From positions 256,001 through 320,000 of the forward strand of contig CAVRZA010000001.1 of NCBI GenBank assembly GCA_963725665.1: a DNA stretch of 64,000 nucleotides, written 5' to 3'. This document shows, one piece after another, positions 12,851-35,309 of the stretch. Every line of letters begins with the position of its first letter. Within the stretch, counting starts at the first letter, position 1. The translations under genes and the position numbers were made by a program. This DNA is from an uncultured Actinomycetes bacterium (lineage in GTDB: Bacteria; Actinomycetota; Thermoleophilia; UBA2241). The notes beneath the pieces were generated by a model that was not told where the DNA came from, searched no databases, and saw only the letters and a list, made by a program, of their open reading frames with translations.

Positions 12851-14542
12851 TCAGTAGCGCGTGCGTCCCGGCAGGGCCAGGAAGGCGCGGAGCCCGTTCT
12901 CGGTGAACGCCTTGACGTTGCCCGAGCGCGGCGGCGTCGAGGGGTTGCCGTCGTTGTCCCAGGCGATGCCGGTGAATGTCAGTCCGACGGCCTGTAGCTC
13001 GACCAGCTCGACGCCGCCCGTGGTGACGCCGGGCTGCATGGAACCGGTGGCTGCGTTGTACGCGTGGACGAGCTCATGGTAGAGGCCGACGATCGGCGGG
13101 CGCTTCATCCAGGGGTCGGCGCCGGCGCCCACCGTGATCCTGTACGGGTCGTAGGAGACCTTACTGCCAGAACCACCGCCGCGCACGCCGCCCGCGCTCA
13201 GGTAGGCGTTCGCAGCATCGAGCACCTGCGTAGCGTTGCCGCCGGACGTCGGCGCAGCCACGACGCTGCGCCGCGCGTCATCGATAGCTGCGAGAAGACG
13301 GCGACCGATCGGCAAGGAGCGCAGCGCCTCCATGTCGGAGGCGAAACGGGGCGCGAAGGCGGGGTCGGTCACGGAAGAGACGGAGCTTCCCGGGGGCTTG
13401 CCGGCGGCGTTGGTCGACGCGAGCGAGACCCAGGTCACCGTGCCGGGGGCGCTGAAGGGGCGGCGGTCGGTCCGCTGCGCGAACGTGCGTTGCGAGCCGC
13501 TGCCGCCATCGTATCTGTCGCTGCCGCCGCCCCCGGCGAGCAGGTCGTTGCCCGGTCCACCGTAGAGGGCATCATCGCCCTGGCCACCGAAGAGAAGATC
13601 GGAGCCGGGACCACCGTTGAGCCCGTCGTTGCCCGTCCCACCGTCAAGGTAGTCGTTGCCGCCGTCACCGCGCAGCGTGTCGGCGCCGCCGAGCCCGTAG
13701 AGGACGTCGTCGCCGGCGCCGCCCTCGATTCTGTCGTCGTCGGCGTCGCCTTCGAGGTAGTCGCGCCCGTCGCCGCTGGAGAGAGAGTCGTCTCCCGGGC
13801 CTCCGGTCGCGCCGTCGTCACCGGCTCCCGCCCACACGCGGTCGTTGCCAGCCCCGGCATCGATGAGATCATCGCCGGCTCCTCCGTGGATGGTGTCCGC
13901 CCCGCCGCCGCCGAAGATGCGGTCCGCTCCCGGGCCGCCGTTGACGACGTCGCGGCCGGCGCCGGCGTCGACGTAGTCGTCGCCGGCGCCGGCCGCGACC
14001 CTGTCGGCTCCCTCTCCGGCCCAGACGCTGTCGGCTCCGGCGCCTGCGGTGATCACGTCGTCGCCGCGCCCGCCGAGGATGGAGAGGCCGGCGGTGACGC
14101 TGATGTCGGCGGTGATCGTGTCGTTGCCCGCCAGGCCGTCGATGAGCAGCTGCGGCACGTCCTGCGCCGCGTGGGTCGTCGCGCTGCCGTTGATCGTCAC
14201 CGTAAGCGAGCCGTCGTCGTTCTGGTGGATCAGGATGGTGTCGTTGCCGGGCGTCCCGGAGGCGGTGACGGTGGCCGTCGCCGCGGCGGTCCTCGGCGCG
14301 GTGGCCGTCGCCGCGAGGCCGGCGAGGTCGGGAACGTCGCGACTGGCGGCCTCGCGCACGGCGACCGAGGACGGCGACGCGACGGGCGCCGCGAGCCAGG
14401 CGACGGCAAACACGGCGGCGATCACTGTGCCAGCGAGCGCCATGCCGCCTCCGGTCGCGCGTTCGCGATGGATTCCAGCCCCACGGCGCGGCTCACGACG
14501 TTCGCTCACGCCGAGTGCGTGTTCTCCCGTCGGCTCCTCCAC
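12851..14542 (-). CDS. Exported hemolysin-type Ca-binding (RTX nonapeptide) repeat protein with C-terminal M91-like zinc metallopeptidase
   Basis: Hydrophobic N-terminal segment; roughly 20 GGxGxD repeats; [38 protein letters not shown] start at 14542 has a GAGGAG RBS. Confidence 0.8.
13490..14140 (-). repeat. 27-nt-period coding repeats (RTX GGxGxDxLx nonapeptides)
   Basis: e.g. [54 protein letters not shown]. Confidence 0.85.
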
Positions 14543-14615
14543 ACAGGCTCCTCGTCCGGGACGCTGCACCCCGGCACGCGTCCAGCGGGCGCGGGGACAC
14601 GACCGCCTGCAAGCA

Positions 14616-14645
14616 TAAACGTATCCGAGCGTGGTTTCCTTAGCA
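14616..14645 (-). promoter_or_regulatory. Putative ECF promoter of the RTX/M91 gene
   Basis: Minus strand reads TGCTAAGG-N16-CGTTTA. Confidence 0.6.
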
Positions 14646-14743
14646 CGCCGAGAGTGGCCGACGTTCGAGGGGTCGTGCGGGGGACTCAAGTGCGTCTCGC
14701 GGGATTCCCACAGCCTCTCGGGGTGCCTGCGACGCGCGTGGGC

Positions 14744-16069
14744 TCAGCCGAAGACGGGCACGAGGAAGCCTTCGCTGTCGAACTCGAGGCGGCGCTCGTC
14801 GCGATCGACCTCGAGCTCCCAGATGGCGCTCAAGGCGCCGAGGCAGCCCCGCGACACCAGCAGGCGCTCAAGGCGCATGGTGTCGCGGATCCACACGAGG
14901 CGCAGGTCGTCGTCGGTGTAGGGCCTGATCGTCGTCAGGAGCGCGGCGATGACCTCGCGTTCGGTGGCGAACACGAGCGGCAGCCTGGAGTCCTCGGGCG
15001 TGCACGAGGTCAGGGCGTTCATCGCCGTCGCCTCGAGGTCGATGCCGGCGGCGAACCTGCGGCTGACGGCGGAGACCATACCCAACCCCAACGCGTTGCC
15101 CTGCGTGGTCGCGCTGAGACGACGCACCACGATACGCGCGATGCACGGCTCCTCCCGGGGCGCGATCCCAAGGCCGCGGGAGGAGCCGATGACGTTGGGG
15201 TCCATGCCGGCGCCGCTGATCTCCTTGCCCATCTCGTCGACGATCAGCAGGTCGATGTCGGTGAGCGGCAGCCGCGGCAGCACGCTCTTCGCCAAGGCCA
15301 GCAGCATGATCTCGGTGGCCTCGAGCGTCTCGGGTGGCACGAGACGGACGACCATGGGCTCGTGGTCCTGGTTCTCGACGATGGCCACGGCGAAGAGGAC
15401 GTTGACCTTGGCGAGGAGGGCGCGGGCGACGGCGAGGATCGACTCGCCGAGCCCGCGCGAAAGGCCGTAGCGGTGGTACCGCTCGGCCCCCGCCTGCTTG
15501 CCGAGGCCAATGGCCAGCATCTTGAGAGGGCCGCTCTCGACCGGTCCGACGAAGTCGGTGTGCGGCTTCACGCGGTTGACGAGGACGACACCGTCGGCCT
15601 CGTATGCGTTGCGGTCGAGATACAGGGGGATGCCGTTGGCTTCACCGAGCACCGCGACCTCCATCGTCGCGCGCACCGGCGCTCCCACGCTGTCGGGCGT
15701 GACGCCTCGGTGGGCGAGCACCTCGGTCTGCCCCTGGGCCGTCGCGCCGCCGTGGGAACCCATGGCGGGCACGATGAAGGGCTCGAGTCCCTGCTCCTTC
15801 AGCTTCGCGACCACGTGGCGGACCGTCTCCGGCAGGCGGTCGATGCCGCGGCTGCCGACGGCGACCGCCACGCGCGCACCACGGGGCAGCGTGATGCGCG
15901 AGGCCACCGACTCCCACTGGCCATCGATCTCGCGCGCAGGGTCGACGGGGGGTGGCACCACGAAGCTCTGGCGGACCAGGTGCATCGCTGGCAGCCGTGG
16001 TTCCCCCTTGTGAAGCGGGAACGAAAGAACGGGGACGCTGAGGGAGCCTGCTGAGGGTGTCTCGTCCAC
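14744..16069 (-). CDS. Lactate racemase (LarA)/DUF2088-superfamily protein; start uncertain (alternative ATG at 15985)
   Basis: VAVAVGSRGI, PFIVPAMGSHGGATAQGQ, NRVKPHTDF, ESGPLKMLAIGLGK, GKEISGAGMDPNVIG. Confidence 0.8.
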   Translation of the reverse strand: MDETPSAGSLSVPVLSFPLHKGEPRLPAMHLVRQSFVVPPPVDPAREIDGQWESVASRITLPRGARVAVAVGSRGIDRLPETVRHVVAKLKEQGLEPFIVPAMGSHGGATAQGQTEVLAHRGVTPDSVGAPVRATMEVAVLGEANGIPLYLDRNAYEADGVVLVNRVKPHTDFVGPVESGPLKMLAIGLGKQAGAERYHRYGLSRGLGESILAVARALLAKVNVLFAVAIVENQDHEPMVVRLVPPETLEATEIMLLALAKSVLPRLPLTDIDLLIVDEMGKEISGAGMDPNVIGSSRGLGIAPREEPCIARIVVRRLSATTQGNALGLGMVSAVSRRFAAGIDLEATAMNALTSCTPEDSRLPLVFATEREVIAALLTTIRPYTDDDLRLVWIRDTMRLERLLVSRGCLGALSAIWELEVDRDERRLEFDSEGFLVPVFG

Positions 16070-16109: not shown

Positions 16110-16150
16110 GTCGACGGCGCGCGACGCGGGGTCGACGGCGCGCGACGGGG
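16110..16150. repeat. Tandem 17-bp direct repeat (21-bp period) in a divergent promoter region
   Basis: GTCGACGGCGCGCGACG at 16110 and 16131. Confidence 0.7.
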
Positions 16151-16212
16151 GTTAACACCGCCGCGCCAGGGGTACTAGGGGCCCAGGTCGCTTCTCACGT
16201 CTGGGGGATCAC

Positions 16213-16452
16213 ATGGCGAACGACACCGCTTCACTCACGCTCGACTGCATCGGGCTATACTGCCCCGAGCCGCTCTTCCAGACCCGCGAGAGCATCGACT
16301 CGATCGAGATCGGCGAGGTGCTCGAGGTGTTCACGGACGACCCGGCGGCCGAGGAGGACCTCACGCGCTTCGCCAAGCGCGCGGGTCACGAGGTCGTGGC
16401 CCTCGAGCGTGACGGTGACCAGCTGCACATCCTGATCCGGCGCCTGAAGTGA
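16213..16452 (+). CDS. tusA: Sulfurtransferase TusA family protein
   Basis: LDCIGLYCPEP motif; GEVLEVFTDDPAAEEDL; 79 aa. Confidence 0.9.
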   Translation: MANDTASLTLDCIGLYCPEPLFQTRESIDSIEIGEVLEVFTDDPAAEEDLTRFAKRAGHEVVALERDGDQLHILIRRLK

Positions 16453-16550: not shown

Positions 16551-16913
16551 ATGAGAAACGAGAAGGCTATCCTCTACGTGCAGACCACAGACCAGCCCGA
16601 GAAGCAGTACTCGCCGCTGGTGCTCGCGCAGACGGCGAAGGCCATGGACCTCGAGCCCGCCGTCTACTACCTTGGCTTGGGGCTCAAGATCCTCAAGCCG
16701 GGCGCTGCCGACCAGATCAAGCTGGGGACCTTCCCCAGCGTCAAGGAGATGCTCGACAAGACGCTCGGCATGGGGATTCCCGTCTACGTGTGCGAGGCTT
16801 CGAAGCAGATGCTCGGTTGGGAGACGGTGGAGCTCATCGACGGCGTCAAGATCGTCGGCGCGGGGACGCTCAACGACCTCTCGCTCGACGCCGGCGCCAC
16901 GATGTGGTTCTGA
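16551..16913 (+). CDS. DsrE-family protein
   Basis: YSPLVLAQTAKAMD, YYLGLG, GIPVYVCEAS with conserved Cys, IVGAGTL. Confidence 0.8.
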   Translation: MRNEKAILYVQTTDQPEKQYSPLVLAQTAKAMDLEPAVYYLGLGLKILKPGAADQIKLGTFPSVKEMLDKTLGMGIPVYVCEASKQMLGWETVELIDGVKIVGAGTLNDLSLDAGATMWF

Positions 16914-16947: not shown

Positions 16948-18132
16948 ATGACGGTGATCGCGCAGAGCGACGTCGTCTACGCCGACTATCAGTCGTCGAA
17001 GCCGGTCGACGCGCGCGTCGTCGAGGCGATGCTGCCGTACTTCGCGGAGACCTTCGGCAACGCCTCGGCGCTGCACGGTGTCGGCGACGTGGCCACGGCC
17101 GCCCTCGACGACGCGCGCGCCCGCGTCGCCGCCTTCTTCGGCGCCAAGCCCGAAGAGATCGTCTTCACTTCGGGTGCCACCGAGTCCAACAACCTCGCCA
17201 TCATCGGGTATGCGCTGCGCAACCGGCGCAAGGGCGACCACGTGCTGATCACCGAGGCCGAGCACATCTCGATCCTCAACATCGCCAAGTACTTGCAGAA
17301 GAACGGCTTCACCGTGACCCGTGTGCCCATCGACCTCTACGGTCGCGTGTCGCCCAAGAAGCTGCGCGCGCGCGTCACCGACGACACCATCCTGGTGTCG
17401 GTGGGCTGGGCGAGCAACGAGATCGGCACGCTGCAGCCGGTCGCCGAGATCGCCGAGATGCTCGAGGGCACGGGGATCGTGCTGCATAGCGACGCCGTCG
17501 CCGCCGAGGGCCTCGTGCCGCTCGACATGAGCGCCGTGCCGGTCGGCCTCATGAGCCTCTCGTCGAACGACCTCTACGGGCCACGCGGCCTGGGCGCGCT
17601 CTACGTGCGCAAGGGCGTGCAGCTCGCGCCGGTCACGATCGGCGGCGGCCAGGAGCGCGGGCTGCGCTCGGGCACCGAAGACCTCGCCTCGATCGCCGGC
17701 ATGGCCGCCGCCACCGACGTCATGGCGGCCGAGATGGCGACTGAGGTGGCGCATATCAGGGCCATCCGCGATCGTCTGGTGGAGCGGGTGCTCGACGAGA
17801 TCCCCGACTCGCACCTCAACGGCCACCCCACGGAGCGCTTGCCCAACAACGCGCACTTCCGCTTCGACGCGGTCGAAGGCGAGGCGATGGTGCTTTCGCT
17901 GCGCGACGCCGGCATCGCGGCGGCGACCGGCTCGGCCTGTAGCTCCAAGACCCTCGAGCCCTCGCATACCCTCCTCGCCACCGGCCTGTTGCACGAGGAG
18001 GCGCACGGCTCGCTCGAGTTCACCTTCGGGCGCTACAGCAAGGAGGAGGACGTCGAGCGCATCATGGACGCGCTGCCGGCGGTCGTGGCCCGGCTGCGCA
18101 GGCTGTCACCCCTCTATGCGGAGAAGGCCTGA
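16948..18132 (+). CDS. iscS: IscS/NifS-like cysteine desulfurase homolog with Lys-to-Asp change at the PLP site
   Basis: FGNASALH, FTSGATESNNLA, NEIGTLQP, GGGQERGLRSGT, catalytic ATGSACSS retained; canonical SxHKxYGPKG reads SSNDLYGPRG. Confidence 0.88.
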   Translation: MTVIAQSDVVYADYQSSKPVDARVVEAMLPYFAETFGNASALHGVGDVATAALDDARARVAAFFGAKPEEIVFTSGATESNNLAIIGYALRNRRKGDHVLITEAEHISILNIAKYLQKNGFTVTRVPIDLYGRVSPKKLRARVTDDTILVSVGWASNEIGTLQPVAEIAEMLEGTGIVLHSDAVAAEGLVPLDMSAVPVGLMSLSSNDLYGPRGLGALYVRKGVQLAPVTIGGGQERGLRSGTEDLASIAGMAAATDVMAAEMATEVAHIRAIRDRLVERVLDEIPDSHLNGHPTERLPNNAHFRFDAVEGEAMVLSLRDAGIAAATGSACSSKTLEPSHTLLATGLLHEEAHGSLEFTFGRYSKEEDVERIMDALPAVVARLRRLSPLYAEKA

Positions 18133-18199: not shown

Positions 18200-19009
18200 A
18201 TGAAATCGACCCAGTACACCGACAAGACCCTCGAGCACTTCCGTAACCCGCGCAACGTGGGCACCCTCGAGGGCCCCAACGTCGCCGTGGGCCGCGTGGG
18301 CAACCCGACCTGCGGCGACCTCATGGACATCTACATAGAGGTCGACGACGACCGCATCAAGGACATCAAGTTCCAGACCTTCGGCTGTGGATCCGCCGTG
18401 GCGACCTCGAGCATGATCACCGAGCTCGTCGTGGGCATGACGCTCGACGACGCCCTGAAGGTCTCGCGCGGCGACGTCGCCGACGCGCTCGACGGTCTGC
18501 CGCCGATCAAGATGCACTGCAGCAACCTGGCGGCCGACGCCCTGCACGAGGCGATCAAGAACTGGCGCGAAGGCGTCAAGCCGGAGGACGCGATGAAGAC
18601 GCCGGGCGGCACCGCCTGTCACCCGATCCCGGCGGCAGTGGCCGAGGTCGAGATCGCCCGACTCGACGAGTACGAGGGCAAGGGCCTGTACCGGCGGGTG
18701 AACGTGGAACAACTCAAGGACCTCGCCGACCAGCGCGTCGTCGTGCTCGACACCGGCGACCGCGCCGCCCAGCTCGCCATGGACCTCACGCAGCACACCG
18801 GCCGTGTCGTGCTGATGACCATCGGTAAGGAGCCGAGCGTGACGCCTGCCGTGCGCTCGGCTCTGCGCCTCAGCGACGTGAAGGTGCTGGGCGAAGCGCA
18901 GCCGCTCGAGCTGCTTGGCGAGGGCGAGCTCGAGCGCATCCGTGTGCACGACCTCAACGAGGACGAGGAATACGAGCTCACAGCCGACGCGTTCGTCGTG
19001 CTGAAGTAG
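18200..19009 (+). CDS. iscU: Fe-S scaffold IscU/NifU fused to a degenerate thioredoxin-reductase NADPH-binding domain
   Basis: EHFRNPRNVG, GNPTCGD, FQTFGCGSA, LPPIKMHCSNLA; extra about 120 aa EYEGKGL..RVVVLDTGDRAAQLAMDL..GEGELERIRV..ELTADAFV. Confidence 0.85.
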   Translation: MKSTQYTDKTLEHFRNPRNVGTLEGPNVAVGRVGNPTCGDLMDIYIEVDDDRIKDIKFQTFGCGSAVATSSMITELVVGMTLDDALKVSRGDVADALDGLPPIKMHCSNLAADALHEAIKNWREGVKPEDAMKTPGGTACHPIPAAVAEVEIARLDEYEGKGLYRRVNVEQLKDLADQRVVVLDTGDRAAQLAMDLTQHTGRVVLMTIGKEPSVTPAVRSALRLSDVKVLGEAQPLELLGEGELERIRVHDLNEDEEYELTADAFVVLK

Positions 19010-19145
19010 CATCGTCCCCGCGCTCGGCGACTCCCACTGCGGCGCGGCGCGTCGTCGTGCAGGGGACGGAGACTCGCCGAGTCGTGACGTGCCCTGCGCT
19101 CGTGCGGGTCGGCCGCGCGACGCGCGGCAGGTAGACTCTCTCCTC

Positions 19146-20045
19146 GTGACTTCTCGCAGCGCAGCCTCAGCCGAGGGCGGCCGGCGCGCAGCCGGCACGG
19201 CCGCCCTCATCGTAGTCGTCGTCGCCTTCTCGTTTCAGACGGGCTCGGCGTTGGCTACGCGCCTGATCGGGCACGTCGGCATCGTCGAGGCGGTGTGGCT
19301 GCGCACGGCCTTTGGTTTCGCGATCCTAGTCCTCGTGCAGCGTGGCGGCCTGCGCTGGCCGGAGCGGGGCCATCGGCTGGCCTTTGCCGCCCTCACCGTG
19401 TCGCTGGCGGCCATGAACCTGAGCTTCTACGGCGCCATATCGCAGGCCCCGCTCGGTGTCGTGGTGGCGGTGGAGTTCCTCGGCCCTCTCTCCGTCGCCG
19501 TGGCCGGTTCGCGCCGGCCGCTCGACTTCGCCTGGATCTCGCTGGCTGCTGTGGGCGTTGTGTTGCTCGCCGGACCCACGAGCTCGGTGAGCGCCCTCGG
19601 GCTGAGCTTGGCGCTATGTGCAGCGGCCTCGTGGGGGTTGTTCCTGGTCTTCGCCAAGCGCGCCGTGACGGCGATGGACCCGCTCCCGGTCGTTACTCTG
19701 ATGCTGGGGTGTTCGACCCTGCTGCTCACACCAGCGCTGGTCACGACAGACCCGTCGTCGATGCTCAACGGGACGGCGCTGCTGCTTGGCTTGGCGGTGG
19801 CGGTGCTCTCGTCGAGCTTCCCATACGTGCTCGAGCTCGTCGCCCTGCGGCTCGTGCGGGCCGCGACCTACGGCGTGTTCTTGAGCATCGAGCCCGCGGT
19901 CGCCGCGCTGACGGGCTTCGTCATCCTGTCGCAGCGCTTGAGCGTAGCCGAGTGGGCGGCCATCGCCGCCGTGGTGGCCGCCGCAGCCGGCTCGAGCTGG
20001 ACCAGCAAAGCCGGCAAGCAAGTCGCTGAGATAGCGGCGGTCTAG
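19146..20045 (+). CDS. EamA/RhtA-type DMT transporter
   Basis: About 10 TM helices; QTGSALA, MNLSFY.AI..PLGVVVAVEFLGP, SSSFPYVLELVALR, LSIEPAVAALTG. Confidence 0.88.
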   Translation: MTSRSAASAEGGRRAAGTAALIVVVVAFSFQTGSALATRLIGHVGIVEAVWLRTAFGFAILVLVQRGGLRWPERGHRLAFAALTVSLAAMNLSFYGAISQAPLGVVVAVEFLGPLSVAVAGSRRPLDFAWISLAAVGVVLLAGPTSSVSALGLSLALCAAASWGLFLVFAKRAVTAMDPLPVVTLMLGCSTLLLTPALVTTDPSSMLNGTALLLGLAVAVLSSSFPYVLELVALRLVRAATYGVFLSIEPAVAALTGFVILSQRLSVAEWAAIAAVVAAAAGSSWTSKAGKQVAEIAAV

Positions 20046-22787: not shown

Positions 22788-23978
22788 GTGGACTTCGACA
22801 AGCCGACCGAGCGCCGCGGCAGCGCCAGCTTCAAGTGGGACCTCTACCCCGAGGACGTGCTCCCCCTGTGGGTCGCCGACATGGACTTCGCCTCGCCGCC
22901 GCCGGTCATCGCCGCGCTCGCGGCGCGCGCCTCTCACGGCGTGTTCGGTTACTCCGTCGTGCCCGACTCGCTTGTCGATGCCGTCGTCGCTCATCTCGCG
23001 GCTCGTTACGGCTGGCGCATCGAGCCGCAGTGGCTCGTGTGGCTGCCGAGCGTGGTCCCCGGGCTCGAGCTCGTGTGCCGGGCCTTCGCCGCGGATGCGG
23101 AGGCGGTGATGACGGTGACGCCGGTCTACCCGCCGTTCCTCGAGGCGCCGCCTCATCAGGGACGGCGCCTCGTCACGGTGCCGGCACTCTTCGACGAGGC
23201 GCCGCCGCCGGTCGGGTCGTCAGAGGCGGCTTCTGTCAAACCGACGGGTGTTCCTCCGGCGACGTGCTGGCGGCTGCCGCTGGCGGACATGGCGGCGGCC
23301 TGCGCGCCGGACACGCGTGCGTTGCTCTTCTGCCACCCGCACAACCCGCTGGGACGGGTGTGGAGGAGGGACGAAGTCGAGGCGGTCGCCTCCTTCTGCC
23401 GCGAGCGCGGGCTCGTGCTCTGCTCCGACGAGATCCACTGCGACCTGCTGCTGGATCAGCTCGAGCACGTTCCGGCGGCGCTGCTCTCAGACGAGGTGGC
23501 CGAGATCACGGTCACGCTGATGTCGCCGAGTAAGACCTTCAACCTGCCGGGGCTCAACTTCGCCTTCGCGGTGATCCCCAACGAGGAGCTGCGGCGGCGA
23601 TTCGCGGCAGCCGGCGAAGGGCTGCTGCCCTTCCCCGGCTGCTTCGCCGTCGCCGCCGCGGAGGCCGCCTACCGCGAGGGCGGCCCGTGGCTGGCCGAGC
23701 TGCTCGAGTACCTGCGCGGCAACGCCGAGCTCGTCGAGTGCTTCGTGCGCGACGAGCTCCCCAACGTGACGATCACGCACGTCGAGGCGACCTACCTGGC
23801 CTGGCTCGACGTGCGCGCCGTCGGCTTGCCCGACCCCGGCGCGGCCTGCGTCCGCGCCGGGGTCGCTCTCTCCGACGGCGCCGCCTTCGGCGCGCCGGGC
23901 TTCCTGCGTCTGAACTTCGCCTGTCCCCGGCCGACCCTGCGCGAGGCGCTCTCGCGGCTGTGCGGCGCCCTGAGCTGA
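22788..23978 (+). CDS. patB: MalY/PatB-family PLP-dependent C-S lyase (cystathionine beta-lyase)
   Basis: KWD..DVLPLWVADMDF, HGVFGY, TPVYPPF, CHPHNPLGRVW, SDEIHCDL, SPSKTFNLPGL, EATYLAWLD, FLRLNFACPR. Confidence 0.9.
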   Translation: MDFDKPTERRGSASFKWDLYPEDVLPLWVADMDFASPPPVIAALAARASHGVFGYSVVPDSLVDAVVAHLAARYGWRIEPQWLVWLPSVVPGLELVCRAFAADAEAVMTVTPVYPPFLEAPPHQGRRLVTVPALFDEAPPPVGSSEAASVKPTGVPPATCWRLPLADMAAACAPDTRALLFCHPHNPLGRVWRRDEVEAVASFCRERGLVLCSDEIHCDLLLDQLEHVPAALLSDEVAEITVTLMSPSKTFNLPGLNFAFAVIPNEELRRRFAAAGEGLLPFPGCFAVAAAEAAYREGGPWLAELLEYLRGNAELVECFVRDELPNVTITHVEATYLAWLDVRAVGLPDPGAACVRAGVALSDGAAFGAPGFLRLNFACPRPTLREALSRLCGALS

Positions 23979-24151
23979 TCTCTCGCGCGCCGTCTTGGGT
24001 TGACGGCACTCGCCGGCGTCTTGGGCCAAAGGGCACGCGCGGCGTCCGCTCCCTTTGACGCCTGGGTGGACTTTCGCCAATACGGATTAGGTGACCTCTT
24101 CGTCGGGCAAGATGCGCCTGCACACGGGATGCTTCTCGAGGAGGACACGAC

Positions 24152-24301
24152 ATGATCCCGCTGCTCCTTCTGCTCATCGCGATCGCACTGGTGTTCGGTT
24201 TCGGCTTCGTGGCCAGGTGGCTCTTCATCATGGCCGCGATCCTGTTCGCGGTCTGGGTCATCGGGTTCTTCGTCGGCCGCAGACGGTGGTACCGCTGGTG
24301 A
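24152..24301 (+). CDS. Small hydrophobic membrane protein (49 aa), absent from the ORF track
   Basis: MIPLLLLLIAIALVFGFGFVARWLFIMAAILFAVWVIGFFVGRRRWYRW; GAGGAGG RBS; resembles actinobacterial hydrophobic proteins ending RWYRW. Confidence 0.75.
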   Translation: MIPLLLLLIAIALVFGFGFVARWLFIMAAILFAVWVIGFFVGRRRWYRW

Positions 24302-24309
24302 CCCGATTC

Positions 24310-24793
24310 ATGATGAGCATTGTCCCGGGCGGCTCCCGCGGGCCGGGACGGTCTTCCGCCACACCCGGTGACGACTTCGCGAACGTGACGTTGACCGGCC
24401 CCGTGGACCTGGCGGGGATGCGAGCCGTCGTCCGCCGGCTCTTGAGCGGTCACGGCGTCGACGAGGTCACGGTGGAGGAGATCGTCCTGGCGACACAGGA
24501 GGCGTCGAAGAACGCTCTGACGCTTCGCCAAGGGGCCGGATGCGTGTGCCTCCGTCACGCTGCATGTCGTCAGCGGCGAGGTGCTCGTGGAGGTGCTCGA
24601 CTGTGGCGGGGGCTTCGACGTGACGTGCGAAGGCATCGACGTGGCGCAGCCTCTCGACGAGCACGGCCGCGGCATCTTCCTCATGCGGCGCTTCATGGAC
24701 ACCCTGGAGGTCGTGCCGAACGGGGTCGGCTGTCTCGTGCGGATGACGAAACGGCTGGGACGGATCGACCTCACGGGGACGGGCGGAGCCTGA
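24310..24793 (+). CDS. Anti-sigma factor/Ser-Thr kinase, RsbW-like (HATPase_c_2), frameshift near 24530-24555
   Basis: IVLATQEASKNAL, VEVLDCGGGFD, DEHGRGIFLMRRFMD. Confidence 0.75.
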
Positions 24794-24833
24794 CGCGCCG
24801 CGCGACGGCGGGCCGGCGGCGTGAGGCGATGAG

Positions 24834-26526
24834 TCAGAGCAGGCGGACGGCCTCGTCGCGCGCGAAGCGCGCCCACTCGGCCGGCCGCCCGTCGTCTTCG
24901 GCTCACGAGGCCGCGACCCTCTTCGCCGAGCTCCGCGATGACCGTCGCGGCGATGCCCGCGTCCTTCAGGGCGGCCAGGAGAGCATCGGTTTCCTCCGGG
25001 GCGCAACAGACGAGCAGGCTGCCCGAGCCGATGAGGCCGCGGGGGTCGGCCCCCAGCAGGTCGCAGATCCGTCTCGTCTCGGGGTAGACGGGTATCGAGG
25101 CGGGGTGCACGGTGACGCGCCGTCCGCAGGCGATACCGAGCTCCTCGAGAGCCGTGGCGAGCCCGCCCTCGGTCACGTCGTGCAGGGCGTGGACGCCTTC
25201 GAAGCCGACGGCCACGCGCGCCTCGGGAAGCACGCTGATGCGATCGAGAAAGCCGAGACAGACGTCGAGCTCGGCGTCGGTCATGCCCAGGTCTCGCAGC
25301 TTATCGCCCAGCTCGGCGGCGAGGAGCGCCGTACCCTCGACGGCGAGCGCCTTGGTGAGCAGCACGCGGTCGCCGGCGGCAGCGCCGCGCTTGTCGCGCA
25401 GATCGGCGCGCGCCAGCGTGCCGACCATGGTCGCGCTCACGAGGGGGCTGGCGATCACTTCGGTGACCTCGGTGTGGCCGCCGACCACGGCGATGCCGAG
25501 GTCGGCGGCCGCCGCGGCGATGCTGCCGAGCAGCGCGAGTGCCTGCGAGGAGGTGCTTCCCGCCGGCAGAAGGACGGTGGTGAGCAGCCAGCGGGGCAGC
25601 GCTCCCGAGGTGGCGATGTCGTTGGCGTTGACCAGGACGCTGTAGCGGCCCAGGTTGGCGCTGGTGAGGGTGATCGGGTCGCCGTGCACGACGATGACCT
25701 CGTCGCGCGACACGTCGATGGCGGCGACGTCCTCGCCGACGCCGGCCCCCACGATGACGGCCGGGTCGGGCGGCGCATCGGGGCCCGTCCCCCCGGTCAC
25801 GCGGCGCAGGTAGCTCGTCAGCAGGTCGTTGGGCAGCTTGCCCTGGGGCAGAGGAAGGCCGAGACGCACCACGTCGTCGACTTCGCCGAGCGAGCTCACG
25901 AGGAAGTCGGCGGCCGGCGGCGCTGCGTCGTCGTCCGGTCCCGGCGCCGCCGGCCGCGCCGGACCGCCGCTGTTCTCGAGGTAGACTGTCACCGCGCCGG
26001 CCGCCTCGCCCGCCTGCACGTCGAGGTGATAGTCGCCGACCATGAGCAGGCGGTCGGGCGCCACGCCCATGAGCTGCGCCGCGTGCAGTACGCCGTCGGG
26101 CGCCGGCTTGTGGGGCAGATCGTCGTCGCGCGTCACGATCACGTCGAAGTCGGCCGCGCGCAGCCCGACGCCGAGCTCCGCGAAGCGGGCGAAGACGGCG
26201 TCGACGGCCGCGCGGCCGCTGCGCGTGATGACACCGAGGCGCAGGCCGAGCCCGCGCAGGCGGCGCACGAGCTCCTCGGCGCCCGGGTTGGGCTCGGCCT
26301 GCGCCGCGCCCACAAGCTCGAACCGTTCGAGGGCGGCGAGCGCGGCCGCGCGCTCGCCGCCCTCCGGAAGCTCCAGGATGTACTCGAGCACGTAGATGTC
26401 GTCGGGGCACCCGACCTCGCGCCTGATGAGGGCGAAGTCGAGCGCCTCGGGACGCGTGAGCGTGCCGTCGAAGTCGAACAGCACTCCCTCGAGGCGGAAG
26501 GGTCGCGGAAGGATCTCCATTGTCAC
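24834..26526 (-). CDS. HAD-family phosphatase fused to an AIR-synthase (HypE-like) domain; frameshift near 24900
   Basis: HAD: LFDFDGTLT, GVITRS, KPAPDG, MVGDYHLD. AIRS: GKLP, GVGEDVAA, DPIT, NANDIATSGA, GGHTEVT, HDVTEGGL, GLIGSGSLL. Confidence 0.8.
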
Positions 26527-31110: not shown

Positions 31111-31394
31111 CGGGCGGGGCCGGTACCGGAGTGTCTTCGCTCGCCGGCCGAGGGACCAAGGACTGGGCCAAGGGGGGATTCGTGACGAGGCGTTCGACTG
31201 GAGACGGTGGGTCCGCCGCTTTCTCCTCGGGACGCCTTCGCTCGCTGCGTCTTCCGCGCCACACCTCGTCTTGAGTTTGGTCCTTGTCTCTGCGCGACCC
31301 TGGTCATGCCACCTGCCGAGGAGGTGAGCGAACAGCGAGATCTCGCTTCAACGAAGGCGATAAGGAGCTGGGGCAACCAACAAAGGGGAAATCG

Positions 31395-32489
31395 ATGAGA
31401 AACCCGTACAGGCGTCATCTCGCGGCACTTGCGGTCGTCGTTCTGCTGCTTGCCGTCCTCGCGGCGGCGGGCTGCGGAGGGAGGTCCGAGACCACGAGCA
31501 CAACCTCGCCGGCGGCGTCACCGTCAGTCCAGGTCACCAAGGTCGCCGTCATCACGCCTGAGAAGGCGAACGACTACGGCTGGAACCAAGTGGGGGTTGA
31601 ATCCGTCAAGGCGGCAGCGGCGACCACGGGAGCCCAGGTCATCGTCCAGGACGGCGCGGGGTACGGCGACATCACGCCGATCATGAACCAGCTGGCCACC
31701 CAGGATCCTCAGCTCATCTTCGCGTGGGCGAGTGGCTACAACACGGTCGGCCCCAACATGGCCCAGCAGTTGAACATCCCGACGACGAGCTCCGACCCCG
31801 GCACCGAGTCCGCCAACGTGCCCAATCTGGTCCAGGCGATCGAGGAACATGCCGAGAAGGGCGGGTACCTCGCCGGTGTCCTTGCCGCCAGCATGAGCAA
31901 GACCAGCACGATCGCCATCGTGGCGTCCGCGGATGACCTGAACTGGGCCAAGATGTCCGGCGGTTACATCGCCGGCGCTCGTTCGGTCTCGCCGACCATC
32001 AAGGTCCTCTTCGTGCAGATCGGGCAGGCCGGCTACGCCGACGCGGCAGGCGGCAAGCGCGTCACGCAGAGCGCCATCTCCGGCGGCGCCGACGTGGTCT
32101 TCGGCATGGGGGACGGTTCGTCGTTCGGCATGATGCAGGCCGTTGAGACCGCGACGCCGCCGAGCGGCGCCGACAAGGTGTGGTTCATCGACGTCATCGG
32201 CAACAAGAGCTCCCTCGACAAGAAGCACATCTACCTGTCGTCGGTCCTGTGGGACTTCACGCAGATCGACACGGAGCTCATCCAAGCGGTCCAGAACGGG
32301 ACGTTCGGTCAGAAGAGCGTGTACCTGGATCTCAACAACGGCTTGGGTCTGCTGCAGACCGACCTCATTCCTGCGGATGTCTGGAGCAAGGTCGAGACCG
32401 CTAAGCAGGCCATCATCGACGGCAGCATCCAGGTGCCGTTGACCACGAACATGAAGCAAGTCAAGAAGATGATCGCCTCTGGACAGTGA
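31395..32489 (+). CDS. BMP-family ABC transporter substrate-binding lipoprotein
   Basis: Lipobox AAAGC; NDYGWNQ, GYLAGVLAASMSKT, GADVVFG, LSSVLWD. Confidence 0.9.
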   Translation: MRNPYRRHLAALAVVVLLLAVLAAAGCGGRSETTSTTSPAASPSVQVTKVAVITPEKANDYGWNQVGVESVKAAAATTGAQVIVQDGAGYGDITPIMNQLATQDPQLIFAWASGYNTVGPNMAQQLNIPTTSSDPGTESANVPNLVQAIEEHAEKGGYLAGVLAASMSKTSTIAIVASADDLNWAKMSGGYIAGARSVSPTIKVLFVQIGQAGYADAAGGKRVTQSAISGGADVVFGMGDGSSFGMMQAVETATPPSGADKVWFIDVIGNKSSLDKKHIYLSSVLWDFTQIDTELIQAVQNGTFGQKSVYLDLNNGLGLLQTDLIPADVWSKVETAKQAIIDGSIQVPLTTNMKQVKKMIASGQ

Positions 32490-34171
32490 TCATGGCCCCG
32501 TTCTCTCAAGAGGGTGACGGGGAGGGCGGGCGCGGTCTGACGACCGCGCCCGCCCTCCCCGTCGACGGGGCTGCCGCTCCCGGCGACGCCTCCGCGCAGA
32601 CCATCGCCATCCAGTTCTGCGACATCACGAAAGAGTTCCCGGGGGTGCGCGCCAACGACTGCGTCAATCTCATCGTGCGGCAGGGCGAGGTGCATTGCCT
32701 GCTCGGCGAGAACGGCGCCGGCAAGTCGACGCTGATGAACGTGCTGGCCGGCATCTATCAACCCGACGAAGGCACCATCCGCGTGTGCAACGAGGAGGTG
32801 TGCATCAGCTGTCCGCGGGACGCGATCGACCTCGGCATCGGCATGGTGCACCAGCACAGCAGCCTGATCCCGACCTTCACGGTTCTCGAGAACCTCATGC
32901 TCGGCCAGGGTGAGGGTGTGCGGCTCAGCGTCAAGAAGGCCCAAGACGGGCTCGCGAGCCTCTCGGCGACACTCGGCGTGGATGTCGACCCCGACACCGA
33001 GGTGGGACAGCTGTCGCTCGGCCAGCAGCAGCAGGTGGAGATCCTGAAGGCGCTCTGGCAGGGCTCCAAGGTCCTCATCCTCGACGAGCCGACCTCGATG
33101 TTGACGCCCAAGGGCATCGAGGATCTCGAGCGGGTCCTTCTGAGGCTCAAGCGGGAGGGCCTGGCCATCATCTTCATCACCCACAAGCTGCACGAGGCCG
33201 CCGCCATCGGCGACCGCGTCTCCGTGCTGCGTCAAGGTCGGCTGGAGGACACGATCGACAGCGAAATGATGCGGAGGCTCTCCCGCGAGGAGCTGCAGCG
33301 CATGATCGTTGATCTGATGTTCCCCGGCGAGGCCGAGAGCCTGGCCAGCGTCGCCGAGCTGCGCGACCTCGCGGAGCTGGGCGGCACGGGCAGCAAGGCG
33401 GCTATCGGGGGGCCGTTGCTGGAGCTCGACGGCGTCACTGTCGCCGGCAAGCACGGAGAGATCGGCATCGAGGAGGGCATCACGCTTACGGTGCACGCGG
33501 GCGAGGTGGTCGGCATCGCTGGCGTAGACGGCAACGGCCAGCGACCGCTGGCCGAAGCCATCGCCGGCCAGCGTTCGCTCTCCGGCGGCGATATCAGTCT
33601 CGGCGGCACCTCGATACGCAGGCTGAGCGTAGGCGCACGCCAGCGCCTCGGCTTGCGCTATGTAACCGACGATCGCTTCAACGAGGGGATTGTCGGTGCG
33701 CTCCCTGTGTCCATCAACATGGTCATGAAGAGCATCGGCATGCCGCCGTTCTGGATACACGGCCGCACGCGTCCCGCGGAGATCGATGCCAACGCCGAGA
33801 AGCTGGTCGACGAGTACAACATCATGACGCCGTCGATCCACACCCACGCAGGTTCTCTCTCGGGCGGCAACGCTCAAAAGATGGTGCTGGCGCGCGAACT
33901 GTCCTTCGACCCCAGGGCGGTGGTGTTCAACAAGCCGACCTACGGGCTAGACGTCAAGACCACGACGGCTGTACGCGCGCGAATCCGCGAATTGGTAGAC
34001 ACGGGGAAGGCCGGCGCCCTGGTCATCTCCACCGACCTTGAAGAGCTCCTGGTGCTCTGCGACCGCGTCGCGGTGCTGTCACGCGGCCGCCTCATGGGGG
34101 TCGTGCAGAACAAGCCCGGCGCGGAGCAGGAGATCGGCGCACTGATGATCGGAGGAGGGCGCGGTGAGTGA
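32486..34171 (+). CDS. ABC transporter ATPase (CUT2/nucleoside type, two NBDs)
   Basis: GENGAGKST, IGMVHQH, LILDEPT, FITHKL, LSGGNAQK, PTYGLD. Confidence 0.92.
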   Translation: MIMAPFSQEGDGEGGRGLTTAPALPVDGAAAPGDASAQTIAIQFCDITKEFPGVRANDCVNLIVRQGEVHCLLGENGAGKSTLMNVLAGIYQPDEGTIRVCNEEVCISCPRDAIDLGIGMVHQHSSLIPTFTVLENLMLGQGEGVRLSVKKAQDGLASLSATLGVDVDPDTEVGQLSLGQQQQVEILKALWQGSKVLILDEPTSMLTPKGIEDLERVLLRLKREGLAIIFITHKLHEAAAIGDRVSVLRQGRLEDTIDSEMMRRLSREELQRMIVDLMFPGEAESLASVAELRDLAELGGTGSKAAIGGPLLELDGVTVAGKHGEIGIEEGITLTVHAGEVVGIAGVDGNGQRPLAEAIAGQRSLSGGDISLGGTSIRRLSVGARQRLGLRYVTDDRFNEGIVGALPVSINMVMKSIGMPPFWIHGRTRPAEIDANAEKLVDEYNIMTPSIHTHAGSLSGGNAQKMVLARELSFDPRAVVFNKPTYGLDVKTTTAVRARIRELVDTGKAGALVISTDLEELLVLCDRVAVLSRGRLMGVVQNKPGAEQEIGALMIGGGRGE

Positions 34172-35309
34172 CACCACGAACGAAGCCATCCTTGCCTTCG
34201 GTGCGCCCGCGCGACCGTCCGCGCTGCGGCGTGGGAGGAAGGCGTTCTGGCGGGCGGCCGTCCCCGTCTTCTACGGCCTCATCGCCGGCGGCGTACTGCT
34301 GCTCGTCTTGGGCAAGAACCCGGTCACCTTCTACTGGACGACACTCGAGAACGGATTGCTCACGTCGGCCGGCCTCGAGCAGACACTCATCCGCCTGGCC
34401 CCCCTGCTGTTGATGTCGGCGGGGTTCATCGTGGCCTTCCAGGCGGGACTGTGGAACATCGGCGGCGACGGTCAGTTCCTGATGGCGGCCGCATTGGTCG
34501 GCGGCCTCGGCGCGTCGATGGTGGCAGCGCTGCCTTTCTGGCTCGCGCTCGTCCTTCTCTGCATCATCGCCTTCCTGGTCGGCGCGGCTTGGACTCTCGT
34601 GCCGTCGTTCCTGAAGGCCTACTACGGCATGAACGAGATCATCACCAGCCTGATGATGGCCTACCTCGGCATCAACTTCGCCAACTTTCTGATCAAAGGT
34701 CCGTTCTTGACCGACGTGGGTTTCGTCCCACAAACGAACGTCATTCCCTTCGCGTACCTTCTGCCGTATCTACCGGGCACACGGATCCACGTGGGCATCG
34801 TCGTCGCGCTTGTCGTGCTGGGCCTTGTGCACTACATGCAGACTCGCACCGGGTACGGGCTCCGCCTGCGCATCCTGGGCGCCAACCCAAGAGCGGCAGT
34901 CCATGCCGGCATCAACGTGAAGCGTGACATCATCACTGCGTTCGCCCTGAGCGGCGGCCTCATCGGCCTAGCCGCCGCTGTCGAAGTGCTAGGCGTGTGG
35001 GGCTACGTGCGTGCTGACTGGAATCCCGCGTTCGGCATGACGCTGTTCGCGATCGTGTTCCTCGCCGGGCTCAACGTCATGGTGGTCATCCCCTTCGTGT
35101 TCTTCTTCGCCGTGATCCAGATAGGAGGCCACGAGGCCGCCCGGCAGGCGGGGTTGCCCAACGACTTCCTGTTGCTGTTGGTCGGACTGATCCTGTTCTT
35201 CATGGTGCTGACGGAGTGGGCACGCACGCGGGGATGGTTCAGCAGAAGGGGCAAGGAGGTCGCGTCGGGCGTTGCCCTCGGGCCGGAAGAGGCGGTGAGC
35301 AATGGGTAG
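34164..35309 (+). CDS. ABC transporter permease (nucleoside type)
   Basis: GLWNIGGDGQF, NEIITSLMM, GYGLRLRILGANPRAA. Confidence 0.9.
   Translation: MSDTTNEAILAFGAPARPSALRRGRKAFWRAAVPVFYGLIAGGVLLLVLGKNPVTFYWTTLENGLLTSAGLEQTLIRLAPLLLMSAGFIVAFQAGLWNIGGDGQFLMAAALVGGLGASMVAALPFWLALVLLCIIAFLVGAAWTLVPSFLKAYYGMNEIITSLMMAYLGINFANFLIKGPFLTDVGFVPQTNVIPFAYLLPYLPGTRIHVGIVVALVVLGLVHYMQTRTGYGLRLRILGANPRAAVHAGINVKRDIITAFALSGGLIGLAAAVEVLGVWGYVRADWNPAFGMTLFAIVFLAGLNVMVVIPFVFFFAVIQIGGHEAARQAGLPNDFLLLLVGLILFFMVLTEWARTRGWFSRRGKEVASGVALGPEEAVSNG

Follow-up and report, generated by a model that had tools for sequence, protein, structure and literature searches.

How iron-sulfur clusters are built when the 'desulfurase' beside the scaffold cannot mobilise sulfur is a question that has been posed for the IscS-IscU pair of Archaeoglobus fulgidus (PMC8918507). 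In that system IscS carries Asp199, has no desulfurase activity and contributes a cysteine ligand to a [2Fe-2S] cluster on IscU (PMC7585200, PMC8918507), and in the crystal structure of the IscS-IscU(D35A) complex it is the loop cysteine that ligates the cluster between the two proteins (PMC8918507). The 64,000-nucleotide stretch of DNA analysed here, which we call the window, comes from a soil or peat actinobacterium and raises the same question in a bacterium, as it encodes an IscS homologue, IscS(ND), in which the lysine that forms the Schiff base with PLP is replaced by aspartate. A preliminary description of this DNA had pointed to the A. fulgidus protein as an inactive Lys-to-Asp form that donates its cysteine as a cluster ligand, in agreement with the published accounts (PMC7585200, PMC8918507).

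The replaced lysine and its active site

The iscS(ND) gene (16948..18132, + strand) encodes a 394-aa type I cysteine-desulfurase homologue of the A. fulgidus IscS2 type that lacks the PLP Schiff-base lysine. Its reading frame is intact, running from an ATG at 16948 to a stop at 18130-18132, and the product matches the Pfam family Aminotran_5 (PF00266; E 9.7e-70, 235.8 bits) over positions 1-370 of 371. Within SLSSNDLYGPRG (aa 203-214), the codons AAC (17566-17568) and GAC (17569-17571) specify Asn207 and Asp208 where desulfurases have His-Lys, and the mobile loop GSACSS (aa 328-333) keeps Cys331 (TGT, 17938..17940), the cluster-ligating residue in the A. fulgidus IscS-IscU structure. The preliminary description had read these codons, the open frame and the loop cysteine in the same way, and its view that a read error is unlikely is borne out by the wider family. 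The Asn-Asp pair (N-D) and GSACSS are found in 120/120 of the closest homologues listed (the query and 119 metagenome or MAG proteins, 80-98% identity), N-D recurs in 118/120 of the Asgard relatives listed, and across three homologue lists it is held by 120/120, 118/120 and 113/120 members; a deeper N-D lineage has the loop variant S-S-S-P-C-T-S, with the cysteine still there. The gene is under purifying selection, with pairwise dN/dS of 0.19-0.34 against 10 orthologues. Contigs of four public peat and wetland runs (two studies) span 17516-17609 and leave 17566-17571 unchanged among the differences listed, with a further 290 difference rows outside that list, a weakly informative agreement, as these are assembled related strains rather than the raw reads of this assembly. 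The probability that N-D reflects a sequencing or assembly error, or that the gene is a decaying pseudogene, is negligible, because the frame is open, the pair stands in every close homologue listed, from many independent assemblies, as well as in the genomes of relatives, and the gene is constrained; we regard both as ruled out by the conservation of N-D.

Among solved structures, the best match to IscS(ND) is A. fulgidus IscS2 (449.6 bits, E 8.9e-134), with which it shares the motif SSND[IL]YGP, while the best lysine-bearing PDB chain reaches 328.3 bits and E. coli IscS 310 bits. The Asp208 column corresponds to the D of SSNDIYGPKG in 4eb5_A and holds Lys in 168/168 Lys-type sequences. The top PDB chains are of the IscS/NifS type, and NifS and IscS rank first among the NCBIfam models; the protein scores under every NCBIfam desulfurase cut-off (NifS TIGR03402, 449.3 against 530.75; NF010611, 376 against 548), including that for IscS (TIGR02006, 367.7 against 643.2).

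The loss of the lysine is accompanied by other replacements around it. We compared 66 sequences of the N-D clade with 168 Lys-type sequences, and of the positions with a conservation of 85% or more among the Lys type, eight are replaced in the N-D clade, namely T17, T18, M153, Q185, H207, K208, V341 and R357. Here, Q185 becomes Ala and H207 becomes Asn in 66/66, K208 becomes Asp in 65/66, V341 becomes Thr, and R357 becomes Glu or Gln. In IscS(ND) itself, four further conserved positions of the active-site region are replaced beside N207-D208, so that the earlier reading of two adjacent changed residues holds for N207-D208 but has to be widened to take in others, such as Gln185 to Ala and Arg357 to Glu. 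The Q185, H207 and R357 columns are 98-100% conserved among the 168 Lys-type sequences, and we take them to be the Gln near PLP O3', the His before the Lys and the substrate-binding Arg, equivalent to E. coli Q183, H205 and R354. Part of the cofactor pocket, read out from the alignment as T78, H106, N157, D182 and S205, is kept. Because the lysine is replaced by aspartate, an internal PLP aldimine is not possible in IscS(ND), and with His207, Gln185 and Arg357 lost the protein is not expected to turn cysteine sulfur into a persulfide; its homology to the A. fulgidus protein likewise suggests that it would be without desulfurase activity.

Of the features of a functional IscS or NifS, the protein lacks the PLP Lys in S-x-H-K, a score above an NCBIfam cut-off, and the active-site Gln, His and Arg, while it has those of an A. 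fulgidus-type lysine-less IscS, that is the fold, the Asp, the loop Cys, closeness to Lys-less forms, and an IscU alongside. Judged from its sequence, the window ORF encodes an orthologue, in a bacterium, of the lysine-less and desulfurase-dead IscS that became known from A. fulgidus, as had been proposed from the shared Lys-to-Asp change, and is a further, bacterial member of a lysine-less family already known; the best solved match also carries the SSND motif. The likeness to A. fulgidus IscS2-IscU (4EB5, 4EB7, 4HVK; D199K variant, 4R5F) extends to the type I fold, the Asp in place of the PLP Lys within S-S-N-D-[IL]-Y-G-P, the retained loop Cys, and an IscU with all cluster ligands (4eb5_C match, 157 bits), with the two IscS proteins about 53% identical by hand count on the printed alignment. 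The differences lie in the host, where a bacterium that has both a haem-copper oxidase and a canonical IscS-IscU pair takes the place of a sulfate-reducing archaeon, and in IscU, which in the window has an extra thioredoxin reductase (TrxR)-like domain of ~120 aa (269 aa, against the 153-aa chain 4eb5_C).

The tusA-dsrE-iscS-iscU cassette

Two genes for small putative sulfur carriers precede iscS(ND) on the same strand and in one operon with it. The tusA gene (16213..16452, +) encodes a 79-aa TusA/SirA-family sulfur carrier (Pfam TusA, 81.3 bits) with its cysteine, Cys17, in G-L-x-C-P-x-P; E. coli TusA is its closest counterpart in the PDB (1dcj and 3lvj_C, E 4.5e-13), Cys17 is invariant in 14/14 orthologues, and it is the only PF01206 match in the genome. 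The dsrE-like gene (16551..16913, +) encodes a 120-aa DsrE/DsrF-family protein (DsrE, 47.6 bits; DrsE_2, 48.4 bits) with a single cysteine, Cys81, in V-C-E-A-S, which aligns with that of its best PDB match (3mc3, E 2.2e-11) and is invariant in 15/15 orthologues, where mean column identity is 84%. The pair therefore has both cysteines looked for in a TusA/DsrE relay, the C-P-x-P Cys of TusA and a conserved Cys in a DsrE-family protein. A structure prediction for an IscS(ND)-TusA complex, run without controls, scored 0.00, below the mark, and is evidence neither for nor against binding.

Downstream, an iscU fusion gene (18200..19009, +; NifU_N, 154.4 bits) starts 67 nt after iscS(ND) and encodes 269 aa. 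Its N-terminal IscU/NifU_N scaffold (aa 5-124; PDB matches 7c8m and 4eb5_C) holds Cys38, Asp40, Cys63, His106 and Cys107, all invariant in 14/14 orthologues, and is followed by a low-confidence linker (aa 133-147). The C-terminal domain (~aa 148-269) is predicted to adopt the NAD(P)H-binding-domain fold of thioredoxin reductase or a TrxR-type FNR, with PDB matches 3lzw and 5nii and Pyr_redox cluster matches in the atlas; in the model of the fusion (pLDDT 81.7), Foldseek superposes 3lzw over 120 columns (rmsd 1.9, 28% identity) and also retrieves several TrxRs. The domain lacks the TrxR CxxC, its glycine-rich loop is altered, and its TIGR01292 match is weak (25.3 bits, aa 177-265). We expect no NAD(P)H binding by it. 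As a guess, it might dock an electron donor or carrier.

The order tusA-dsrE-iscS(ND)-iscU(N+C) recurs in 14/14 of the actinobacterial loci listed and in one locus of another class (L103), while the order is tusA-iscS-iscU(N+C) in a Thorarchaeota locus (L026) and, in one from Bathyarchaeia, tusA-iscS, after which the contig ends. The Thorarchaeota locus shares the gene order and the IscU fusion with the window (IscS 63%, IscU N domain 73%, C domain 40% and TusA 62% identical), but has no dsrE between tusA and iscS and belongs to an archaeal, low G+C host. With HMMs built from the cassette proteins, which favour cassette-like carriers, TusA was matched in 17/17 N-D loci and DsrE in 15/17, against 0/68 loci with a Lys-type IscS; the 17 loci are not independent, 13 coming from the window's own class, and represent about four separate lineages. 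The sample of loci from named taxa is thin, as it was drawn with a very general peptide pattern and holds 5 of the N-D type among at least 80 loci listed. In the literature covered, which takes in few subscription journals, we found no description of a tusA-dsrE-iscS-iscU linkage or of a bacterial lysine-less IscS. The linkage to TusA in every N-D locus examined, usually with DsrE, and in none of the 68 Lys-type loci offers a concrete and testable sulfur route.

The flanking genes, a DUF362/LarA_N-like gene (14744-16069, - strand) and an EamA transporter (19089-20045), are not conserved beside the cassette in other loci and were rejected as members on that account. The intergenic region that separates tusA from the divergent gene upstream holds a tandem repeat (16110..16151) of two copies of the 21-nt GTCGACGGCGCGCGACGCGGG, the second 95% alike, which is a possible regulator site. 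A sigma-70 promoter scan returned 0 sites, the two terminator-like sites fall inside the next gene, and no Rfam RNA families were found within the 64-kb window.

Sulfur supply to a lysine-less IscS

The genome also encodes a canonical Lys-bearing IscS (SLSGHKVYGPKG, 50% identical to IscS(ND)) with a second IscU directly after it, and other class-V enzymes besides. These are the only two IscU genes, and searches of the genome, at 97.5% completeness, found neither SufBD nor an A-type carrier (PF01521), so that the two IscS-IscU pairs are its only recognisable scaffolds. It further encodes a haem-copper oxidase subunit I (536.4 bits). A similar pairing is reported for Methanosarcina acetivorans, where the catalytic lysine is missing from IscS1, which is reported to act probably like A. 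fulgidus IscS (Deere et al. 2020, PMC7585200), its isc1 cluster comprising iscS1, iscU1 and four genes of unknown function, to which the main text of that paper does not give the names SirA, TusA or DrsE, and in which a functional Lys-type IscS2-IscU2 is also present (PMC7585200). The window genome likewise pairs a Lys-less with a Lys-type IscS-IscU, although M. acetivorans is an archaeal methanogen. In the sense of the minimal ISC system (MIS) MisS-MisU, as defined in PMC12192291 and PMC13066941, the cassette has a desulfurase homologue and an IscU-type scaffold, and no chaperone or carrier genes were found in the scanned locus; given the missing lysine, an active desulfurase of the MisS type is unlikely for IscS(ND). 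The coexistence of two IscS-IscU pairs opens a possible division of labour to study.

On balance, we think that the cassette probably encodes a non-catalytic IscS(ND) that partners IscU and is supplied by a TusA/DsrE persulfide relay. IscS(ND), in which the fold, Cys331 and some of the cofactor pocket are retained, would most likely serve the IscU encoded beside it as a structural partner. Cys331 would act as persulfide acceptor, as the fourth ligand to the [2Fe-2S] cluster while it forms, or as both. TusA (through Cys17) and the DsrE-like protein (through Cys81) would bring sulfane sulfur to IscS(ND)-IscU, the carriers perhaps taking their charge from the canonical IscS or from some other source of persulfide or thiosulfate, and the cassette would then provide an accessory, second line of Fe-S assembly next to that of the canonical pair. 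The scaffold role and the whole relay step are what we infer from this arrangement. The components have homologues that work together elsewhere, as IscS, IscU and TusA are known partners in E. coli (PMC11302665) and TusA-IscS binding and sulfur transfer are established there (3LVJ; PMC11302665, PMC13066941). The families in the E. coli IscS-TusA (3LVJ) and IscS-IscU (3LVL) complexes are homologous to those of the cassette, whose TusA is closest to E. coli TusA among solved chains, but the active E. coli IscS makes persulfide and passes it to TusA, which IscS(ND) cannot do, so any sulfur transfer must run from carrier to IscS or IscU. TusA/DsrE relays also operate in sulfur oxidisers (Rhd-TusA-DsrE-DsrC; DsrE3/TusA of Metallosphaera). 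In common with these, TusA- and DsrE-family genes stand side by side in the window, each with a conserved cysteine; in contrast to them, the acceptor beside the carriers is IscS-IscU, and no DsrC, DsrAB, Hdr-like/sHdr or rhodanese was found among the Pfam-scanned neighbours (5727 to 37465).

The preliminary description had taken the lysine loss to imply sulfide-dependent Fe-S assembly, which is not supported in that form. On this rival reading, IscS(ND)-IscU would build clusters from free sulfide and iron, with TusA and DsrE unrelated to it or serving as sulfide/polysulfide buffers. Sulfide has been hypothesised as the sulfur source of A. fulgidus IscS-IscU (PMC8918507), desulfurase-deficient E. 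coli can draw on it for Fe-S assembly under anoxia (PMC13015791), and strains related to the window's host are found in metagenomes from peat and wetland, where sulfide may at times be present. The canonical IscS-IscU pair and the haem-copper oxidase speak otherwise, since such a host is not a desulfurase-free strict anaerobe, and free-sulfide chemistry leaves the carrier linkage (17/17 and 15/17 against 0/68) unexplained. With sulfur carriers upstream of a dead IscS, persulfide delivery is at least as likely as free sulfide, and we consider assembly from free sulfide unlikely. Alternatively, the cassette could be a sulfur-trafficking module (thiolation, molybdenum cofactor, persulfide handling) or one for cluster storage or repair, in which IscS(ND) is an adaptor that holds persulfide or a preformed cluster. 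E. coli TusA serves both tRNA thiolation and molybdenum cofactor synthesis (PMC13066941), the cassette TusA is the only one in the genome, and the cassette is accessory (10/24 family genomes, against 21/24 for a canonical pair or Lys-type IscS). We nonetheless rate this reading as improbable, because all IscU cluster ligands are invariant in 14/14 orthologues, the A. fulgidus complex holds its [2Fe-2S] cluster between IscS and IscU (PMC7585200, PMC8918507), and no thiolation or molybdenum cofactor genes were found in the Pfam-scanned neighbourhood.

It is also conceivable, and in our view very improbable, that IscS(ND) is still an enzyme that binds PLP or PMP non-covalently and carries out a different reaction, for example one of lyase or transamination type with some other sulfur compound as substrate. 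The cofactor pocket is partly kept and the replacements are strictly conserved as if selected (N207 and A185 in 66/66, D208 in 65/66), while the position of the Arg for the substrate carboxylate is Glu or Gln, and to our knowledge no PLP fold-type I enzyme works without its Schiff-base lysine. A. fulgidus IscS was crystallised with PMP and modelled with PLP in the complex structure (PMC8918507), so that some cofactor chemistry may remain, although desulfurase activity is absent from that protein (PMC7585200, PMC8918507). For the non-catalytic partner that we favour instead, the unusual IscU scaffold and the sulfur carriers may show where lysine-less IscS systems obtain their sulfur.

Distribution and relationships of the N-D clade

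The cassette is present in 10/24 genomes of the same family, and is therefore dispensable there, while 21/24 have a Lys-type IscS or the canonical pair. Its presence is unrelated to weak single SufB-like matches, which occur in 5/10 family genomes with the cassette and 7/14 without. Across the phylum, orthologues were found in only 4/401 sampled genomes. In two trees, which are unrooted and do not include the A. fulgidus sequence, the actinobacterial N-D clade groups with Asgard archaea (SH-aLRT 99-100), whose sequences are its nearest relatives in both, and the lysine-less family around it is mostly archaeal. IscS(ND) falls inside the Lys-less clade (SH-aLRT 96), and the Lys-type paralogue of the same genome falls elsewhere. 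The Asgard grouping and the presence in so few genomes of the phylum make a transfer of iscS(ND) between archaea and bacteria plausible, as had been suggested earlier, and it could have run in either direction.

A bolder extension, which we put forward tentatively and hold to be doubtful as a whole, is that the cassette is a self-contained, desulfurase-independent Fe-S assembly line that has been exchanged between Asgard archaea and Actinomycetota. Here, sulfur would run 'backwards' with respect to E. coli, from TusA/DsrE-SSH to the loop Cys of a pseudo-desulfurase and on to IscU, whose pseudo-TrxR domain would recruit the reductant that converts persulfide to sulfide, in an oxygen-respiring host in which neither SUF nor A-type carriers were found. 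Independently of this scheme, the dead IscS type is more than a peculiarity of archaea. Actinomycetota from soil and peat have it as a conserved protein under selection, and a Desulfosporosinus MAG is named as the source of a further N-D copy. Other residue pairs appear among the names in the cluster look-up, with an N-S form in Odinarchaeum and a Q-G form in 'bacterium BMS3Abin14'.

Active site and kinship of the Asn-Asp IscS

The gene iscS(ND), which encodes an IscS homologue with Asn-Asp in place of the desulfurase His-Lys, lies at 16948-18132 on the plus strand of the window as the third gene of a cassette, and is an intact ORF of 394 codons whose product matches Aminotran_5 end to end (Pfam; E 9.7e-70, 235.8 bits). 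Translation of the ORF places Asn207-Asp208, encoded by AAC (17566-17568) and GAC (17569-17571), within SLSSNDLYGPRG, and the mobile-loop motif GSACSS at residues 328-333, where Cys331 is TGT at 17938-17940, exactly as the preliminary description had it. That description also held a read error to be unlikely, and this is borne out: Asn-Asp and GSACSS occur in 120/120 proteins (the query plus 119 homologues, 80-98% identical, that come from many different metagenome contigs and MAGs and are named, where a name is given, as Thermoleophilia, Solirubrobacteraceae or Actinomycetes bacterium), and dN/dS computed pairwise with ten orthologues of other genomes lies at 0.19-0.34. Such conservation rules out a read error or pseudogene as the cause of the replacement. 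Four public runs from peat or wetland, belonging to two studies, supply contigs of related strains that span the site, and none of their displayed differences (290 further rows are not displayed) falls at 17566-17571.

Among all solved structures, the best match of IscS(ND) by a wide margin is Archaeoglobus fulgidus IscS2 (4eb5, 4eb7, 4hvk; 449.6 bits, E 8.9e-134), about 53% identical by hand count on the alignment, whose chain reads SSNDIYGPKG at the matching position. The next match is its engineered D199K variant (4r5f), while the top lysine-bearing chain scores 328.3 bits, and IscS(ND) falls below the curated cut-off of every NCBIfam desulfurase equivalog. The A. fulgidus traits invoked in the preliminary description, namely Asp199, the lack of desulfurase activity and the donation of Cys to the [2Fe-2S] cluster on IscU, are confirmed by two reports (PMC7585200, PMC8918507). 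We aligned 66 Asn-Asp proteins (that of the window, every fourth match among 119 actinobacterial and 120 Asgard ones, and five locus proteins) with 168 lysine-type proteins, which keep the PLP Schiff-base lysine (100 of 150 representatives with His-Lys and 370-420 aa, and 68 locus proteins). Eight positions with a conservation of 85% or more among lysine-type proteins are replaced in the Asn-Asp clade: T17, T18, M153, Q185 (to A), H207 (to N), K208 (to D), V341 (to T) and R357 (to E/Q). Four of these we take to be E. coli Gln183 (contacting PLP-O3'), His205, Lys206 and the substrate-binding Arg354. The cofactor-pocket residues T78, H106, N157, D182 and S205 are retained, and this partial retention fits the non-covalently bound PMP described for A. 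fulgidus IscS (PMC8918507). Judged by sequence, IscS(ND) is a predicted further member of the A. fulgidus-type dead IscS, a kind already known. Another published lysine-less IscS, IscS1 of M. acetivorans, shares a cluster with four functionally uncharacterised genes (PMC7585200). In the literature searched, with subscription journals mostly outside it, no report was found of a bacterial lysine-less IscS or of tusA-dsrE-iscS-iscU linkage.

Cassette genes and carrier linkage

The cassette consists of four genes on one strand, in the order tusA (16213-16452, plus; TusA family, 81.3 bits), dsrE-like (16551-16913, plus), iscS(ND) and iscU (18200-19009, plus), the last encoding a 269-aa IscU with an N-terminal scaffold domain and a C-terminal part. 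Cys17 of TusA is kept in 14/14 orthologues; Cys81, the only cysteine of the DsrE-like protein, lines up with that of 3mc3, a DsrE-like protein of solved structure, and is kept in 15/15; and the full set of cluster ligands in the IscU N-terminal domain is invariant in 14/14. The C-terminal part of IscU, about 120 residues, matches no Pfam family as such, and its predicted model (mean pLDDT 81.7 for IscU) fits the NAD(P)H-binding domain found in thioredoxin reductases and in ferredoxin-NADP reductase of the TrxR type. The superposition on 3lzw covers 120 columns with an rmsd of 1.9 and 28% identity; several thioredoxin reductases superpose too, and weak sequence matches agree with this fold. As read from the alignment, CxxC is absent and the glycine-rich loop is V-L-D-T-G-D, so that this part looks like a redox-inert pseudo-domain. 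Upstream of tusA, the window carries two tandem 21-nt repeats (16110-16151), while several relatives (among loci L012-L020) carry an inverted-repeat-like ATACC ... GGGTAT about 30-60 nt before tusA that is not evident in the window; these repeats may be operator sites.

The four-gene order with both IscU domains is present in 14/14 actinobacterial loci recovered, and also in L103, a locus from another class of the phylum. A Thorarchaeota locus holds tusA-iscS(ND)-iscU with both IscU domains and without dsrE, and a Bathyarchaeia locus holds tusA-iscS(ND) followed by the contig end. Two of the 14, both MAG loci, have broken frames (in L025 the breaks fall in dsrE and in the C domain of iscU, and in L021 iscS is in two pieces), which are frameshifts or assembly errors. 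As a control, HMMs trained on the TusA and DsrE of the cassette, and hence biased toward cassette-like carriers, were run over all fetched loci, with five loci lacking a clean IscS protein set aside. TusA was matched in 17/17 and DsrE in 15/17 Asn-Asp loci, which amount to only some four independent lineages, against 0/68 lysine-type loci for either carrier. In the Dehalococcoidales MAG locus L030, the IscS homologue has Asn-Gln for His-Lys and clusters with other lysine-less forms (Gln-Gln, Gln-Gly) outside the Asn-Asp clade, and a downstream DsrE-like ORF matches the DsrE HMM; this locus suggests that lysine loss and carrier linkage arose more than once.

Phylogeny and Fe-S machinery

The lysine is absent from 19 of the 150 nearest cluster representatives. 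Two trees were built, both unrooted quick searches with many unnamed rows and with the A. fulgidus sequence not among them. In the first (IQ-TREE, 76 rows), a lysine-less clade of 24 rows (SH-aLRT 96) contains a 17-row clade (100) made up of seven Asgard (98) and ten actinobacterial rows (97). The second (63 rows), from which 28 lysine-type or long-branch rows were removed for speed and to which 15 Asn-Asp rows were added, joins L103, the Asgard clade and the main actinobacterial clade in one group (99) of unresolved branching order. The other Asn-Asp lineages there are a Thermoplasmatota/Euryarchaeota group, a group of 413-416-aa proteins with no taxon name, and a group that unites a Bathyarchaeia MAG protein with one recorded under a Desulfosporosinus MAG. 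The last two proteins (L027 and P0492), assigned to different domains by their record names, form one clade on very short branches (99), as a result of either a recent transfer or a mistake in binning or naming. The genome's own lysine-type paralogue lies far off, among bacterial lysine types. The tree pattern fits inter-domain transfer of the Asn-Asp IscS, in either direction and in one or more events, and the archaeal-bacterial transfer proposed earlier is plausible. An archaeal origin is the more economical reading, since most of the deeper lineages that bear a name are archaeal and few Actinomycetota carry the gene. The GC3 of the cassette (0.88-0.92) resembles that of neighbouring genes, so any transfer would not be recent.

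The window's genome (3.73 Mb, 12 contigs, 68% G+C, 97.5% complete) also encodes, on contig C3, a canonical IscS 50% identical to IscS(ND), with SLSGHKVYGPKG and GSACAS, directly followed by a plain 135-aa IscU, as well as further class-V enzymes. It has exactly two NifU_N genes, a haem-copper oxidase subunit I (536.4 bits) and a sole TusA match, that of the cassette; neither the SufB/SufD core (PF01458) nor an A-type carrier (PF01521) was found in it. Among 40 relatives in families f1-f7, f2, f3, f5 and f7 have SufB and SufD (about 230-304 bits) and mostly lack an IscS-like gene (E <= 1e-60), whereas f1 (the window's family), f4 and f6 lack SufB and SufD and have IscS-like genes; 12/24 f1 genomes show a single weak SufB-like match only. 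This mostly exclusive distribution suggests that the Fe-S machinery was swapped at lineage level within the class. An Asn-Asp orthologue occurs in 10/24 genomes of the window's family, 1/16 others of the class and 4/401 sampled evenly across the phylum (the window's included), which marks the cassette as accessory and patchy and lysine-type IscS as the lineage's mainstay.

Sulfur supply to the cassette

We consider it reasonably probable that the cassette serves as a second assembly line alongside the canonical IscS-IscU pair. Here, IscS(ND) would be a non-catalytic partner of IscU, sulfane sulfur would be brought to it by TusA and the DsrE-like protein, and Cys331 would act as persulfide acceptor, cluster ligand or both. 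The dead-enzyme and scaffold roles are proposed by homology to the A. fulgidus work, while the relay is suggested by gene linkage, the invariant carrier cysteines and the known E. coli IscS-TusA partnership. The live rival is that IscS(ND) and IscU assemble clusters from sulfide, which the preliminary description took to be implied. The sequence does not by itself imply sulfide dependence, since the genome has a canonical IscS and a haem-copper oxidase and both carriers are co-encoded. We regard this rival as unlikely.

Elsewhere in the window, a 611-aa ORF (12851-14689, minus) combines RTX calcium-binding repeats (145.2 bits) with a C-terminal Peptidase_M91 'effector protein' domain (83.7 bits). 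In a 916-aa ORF (23773-26526, minus), a HAD-type hydrolase domain is joined to AIRS and AIRS_C domains, whose fold is that of ThiL, SelD and HypE. Another class-V aminotransferase (36275-37465, plus; 68.6 bits) ends a Bmp-type ABC transporter operon (31284-36237).
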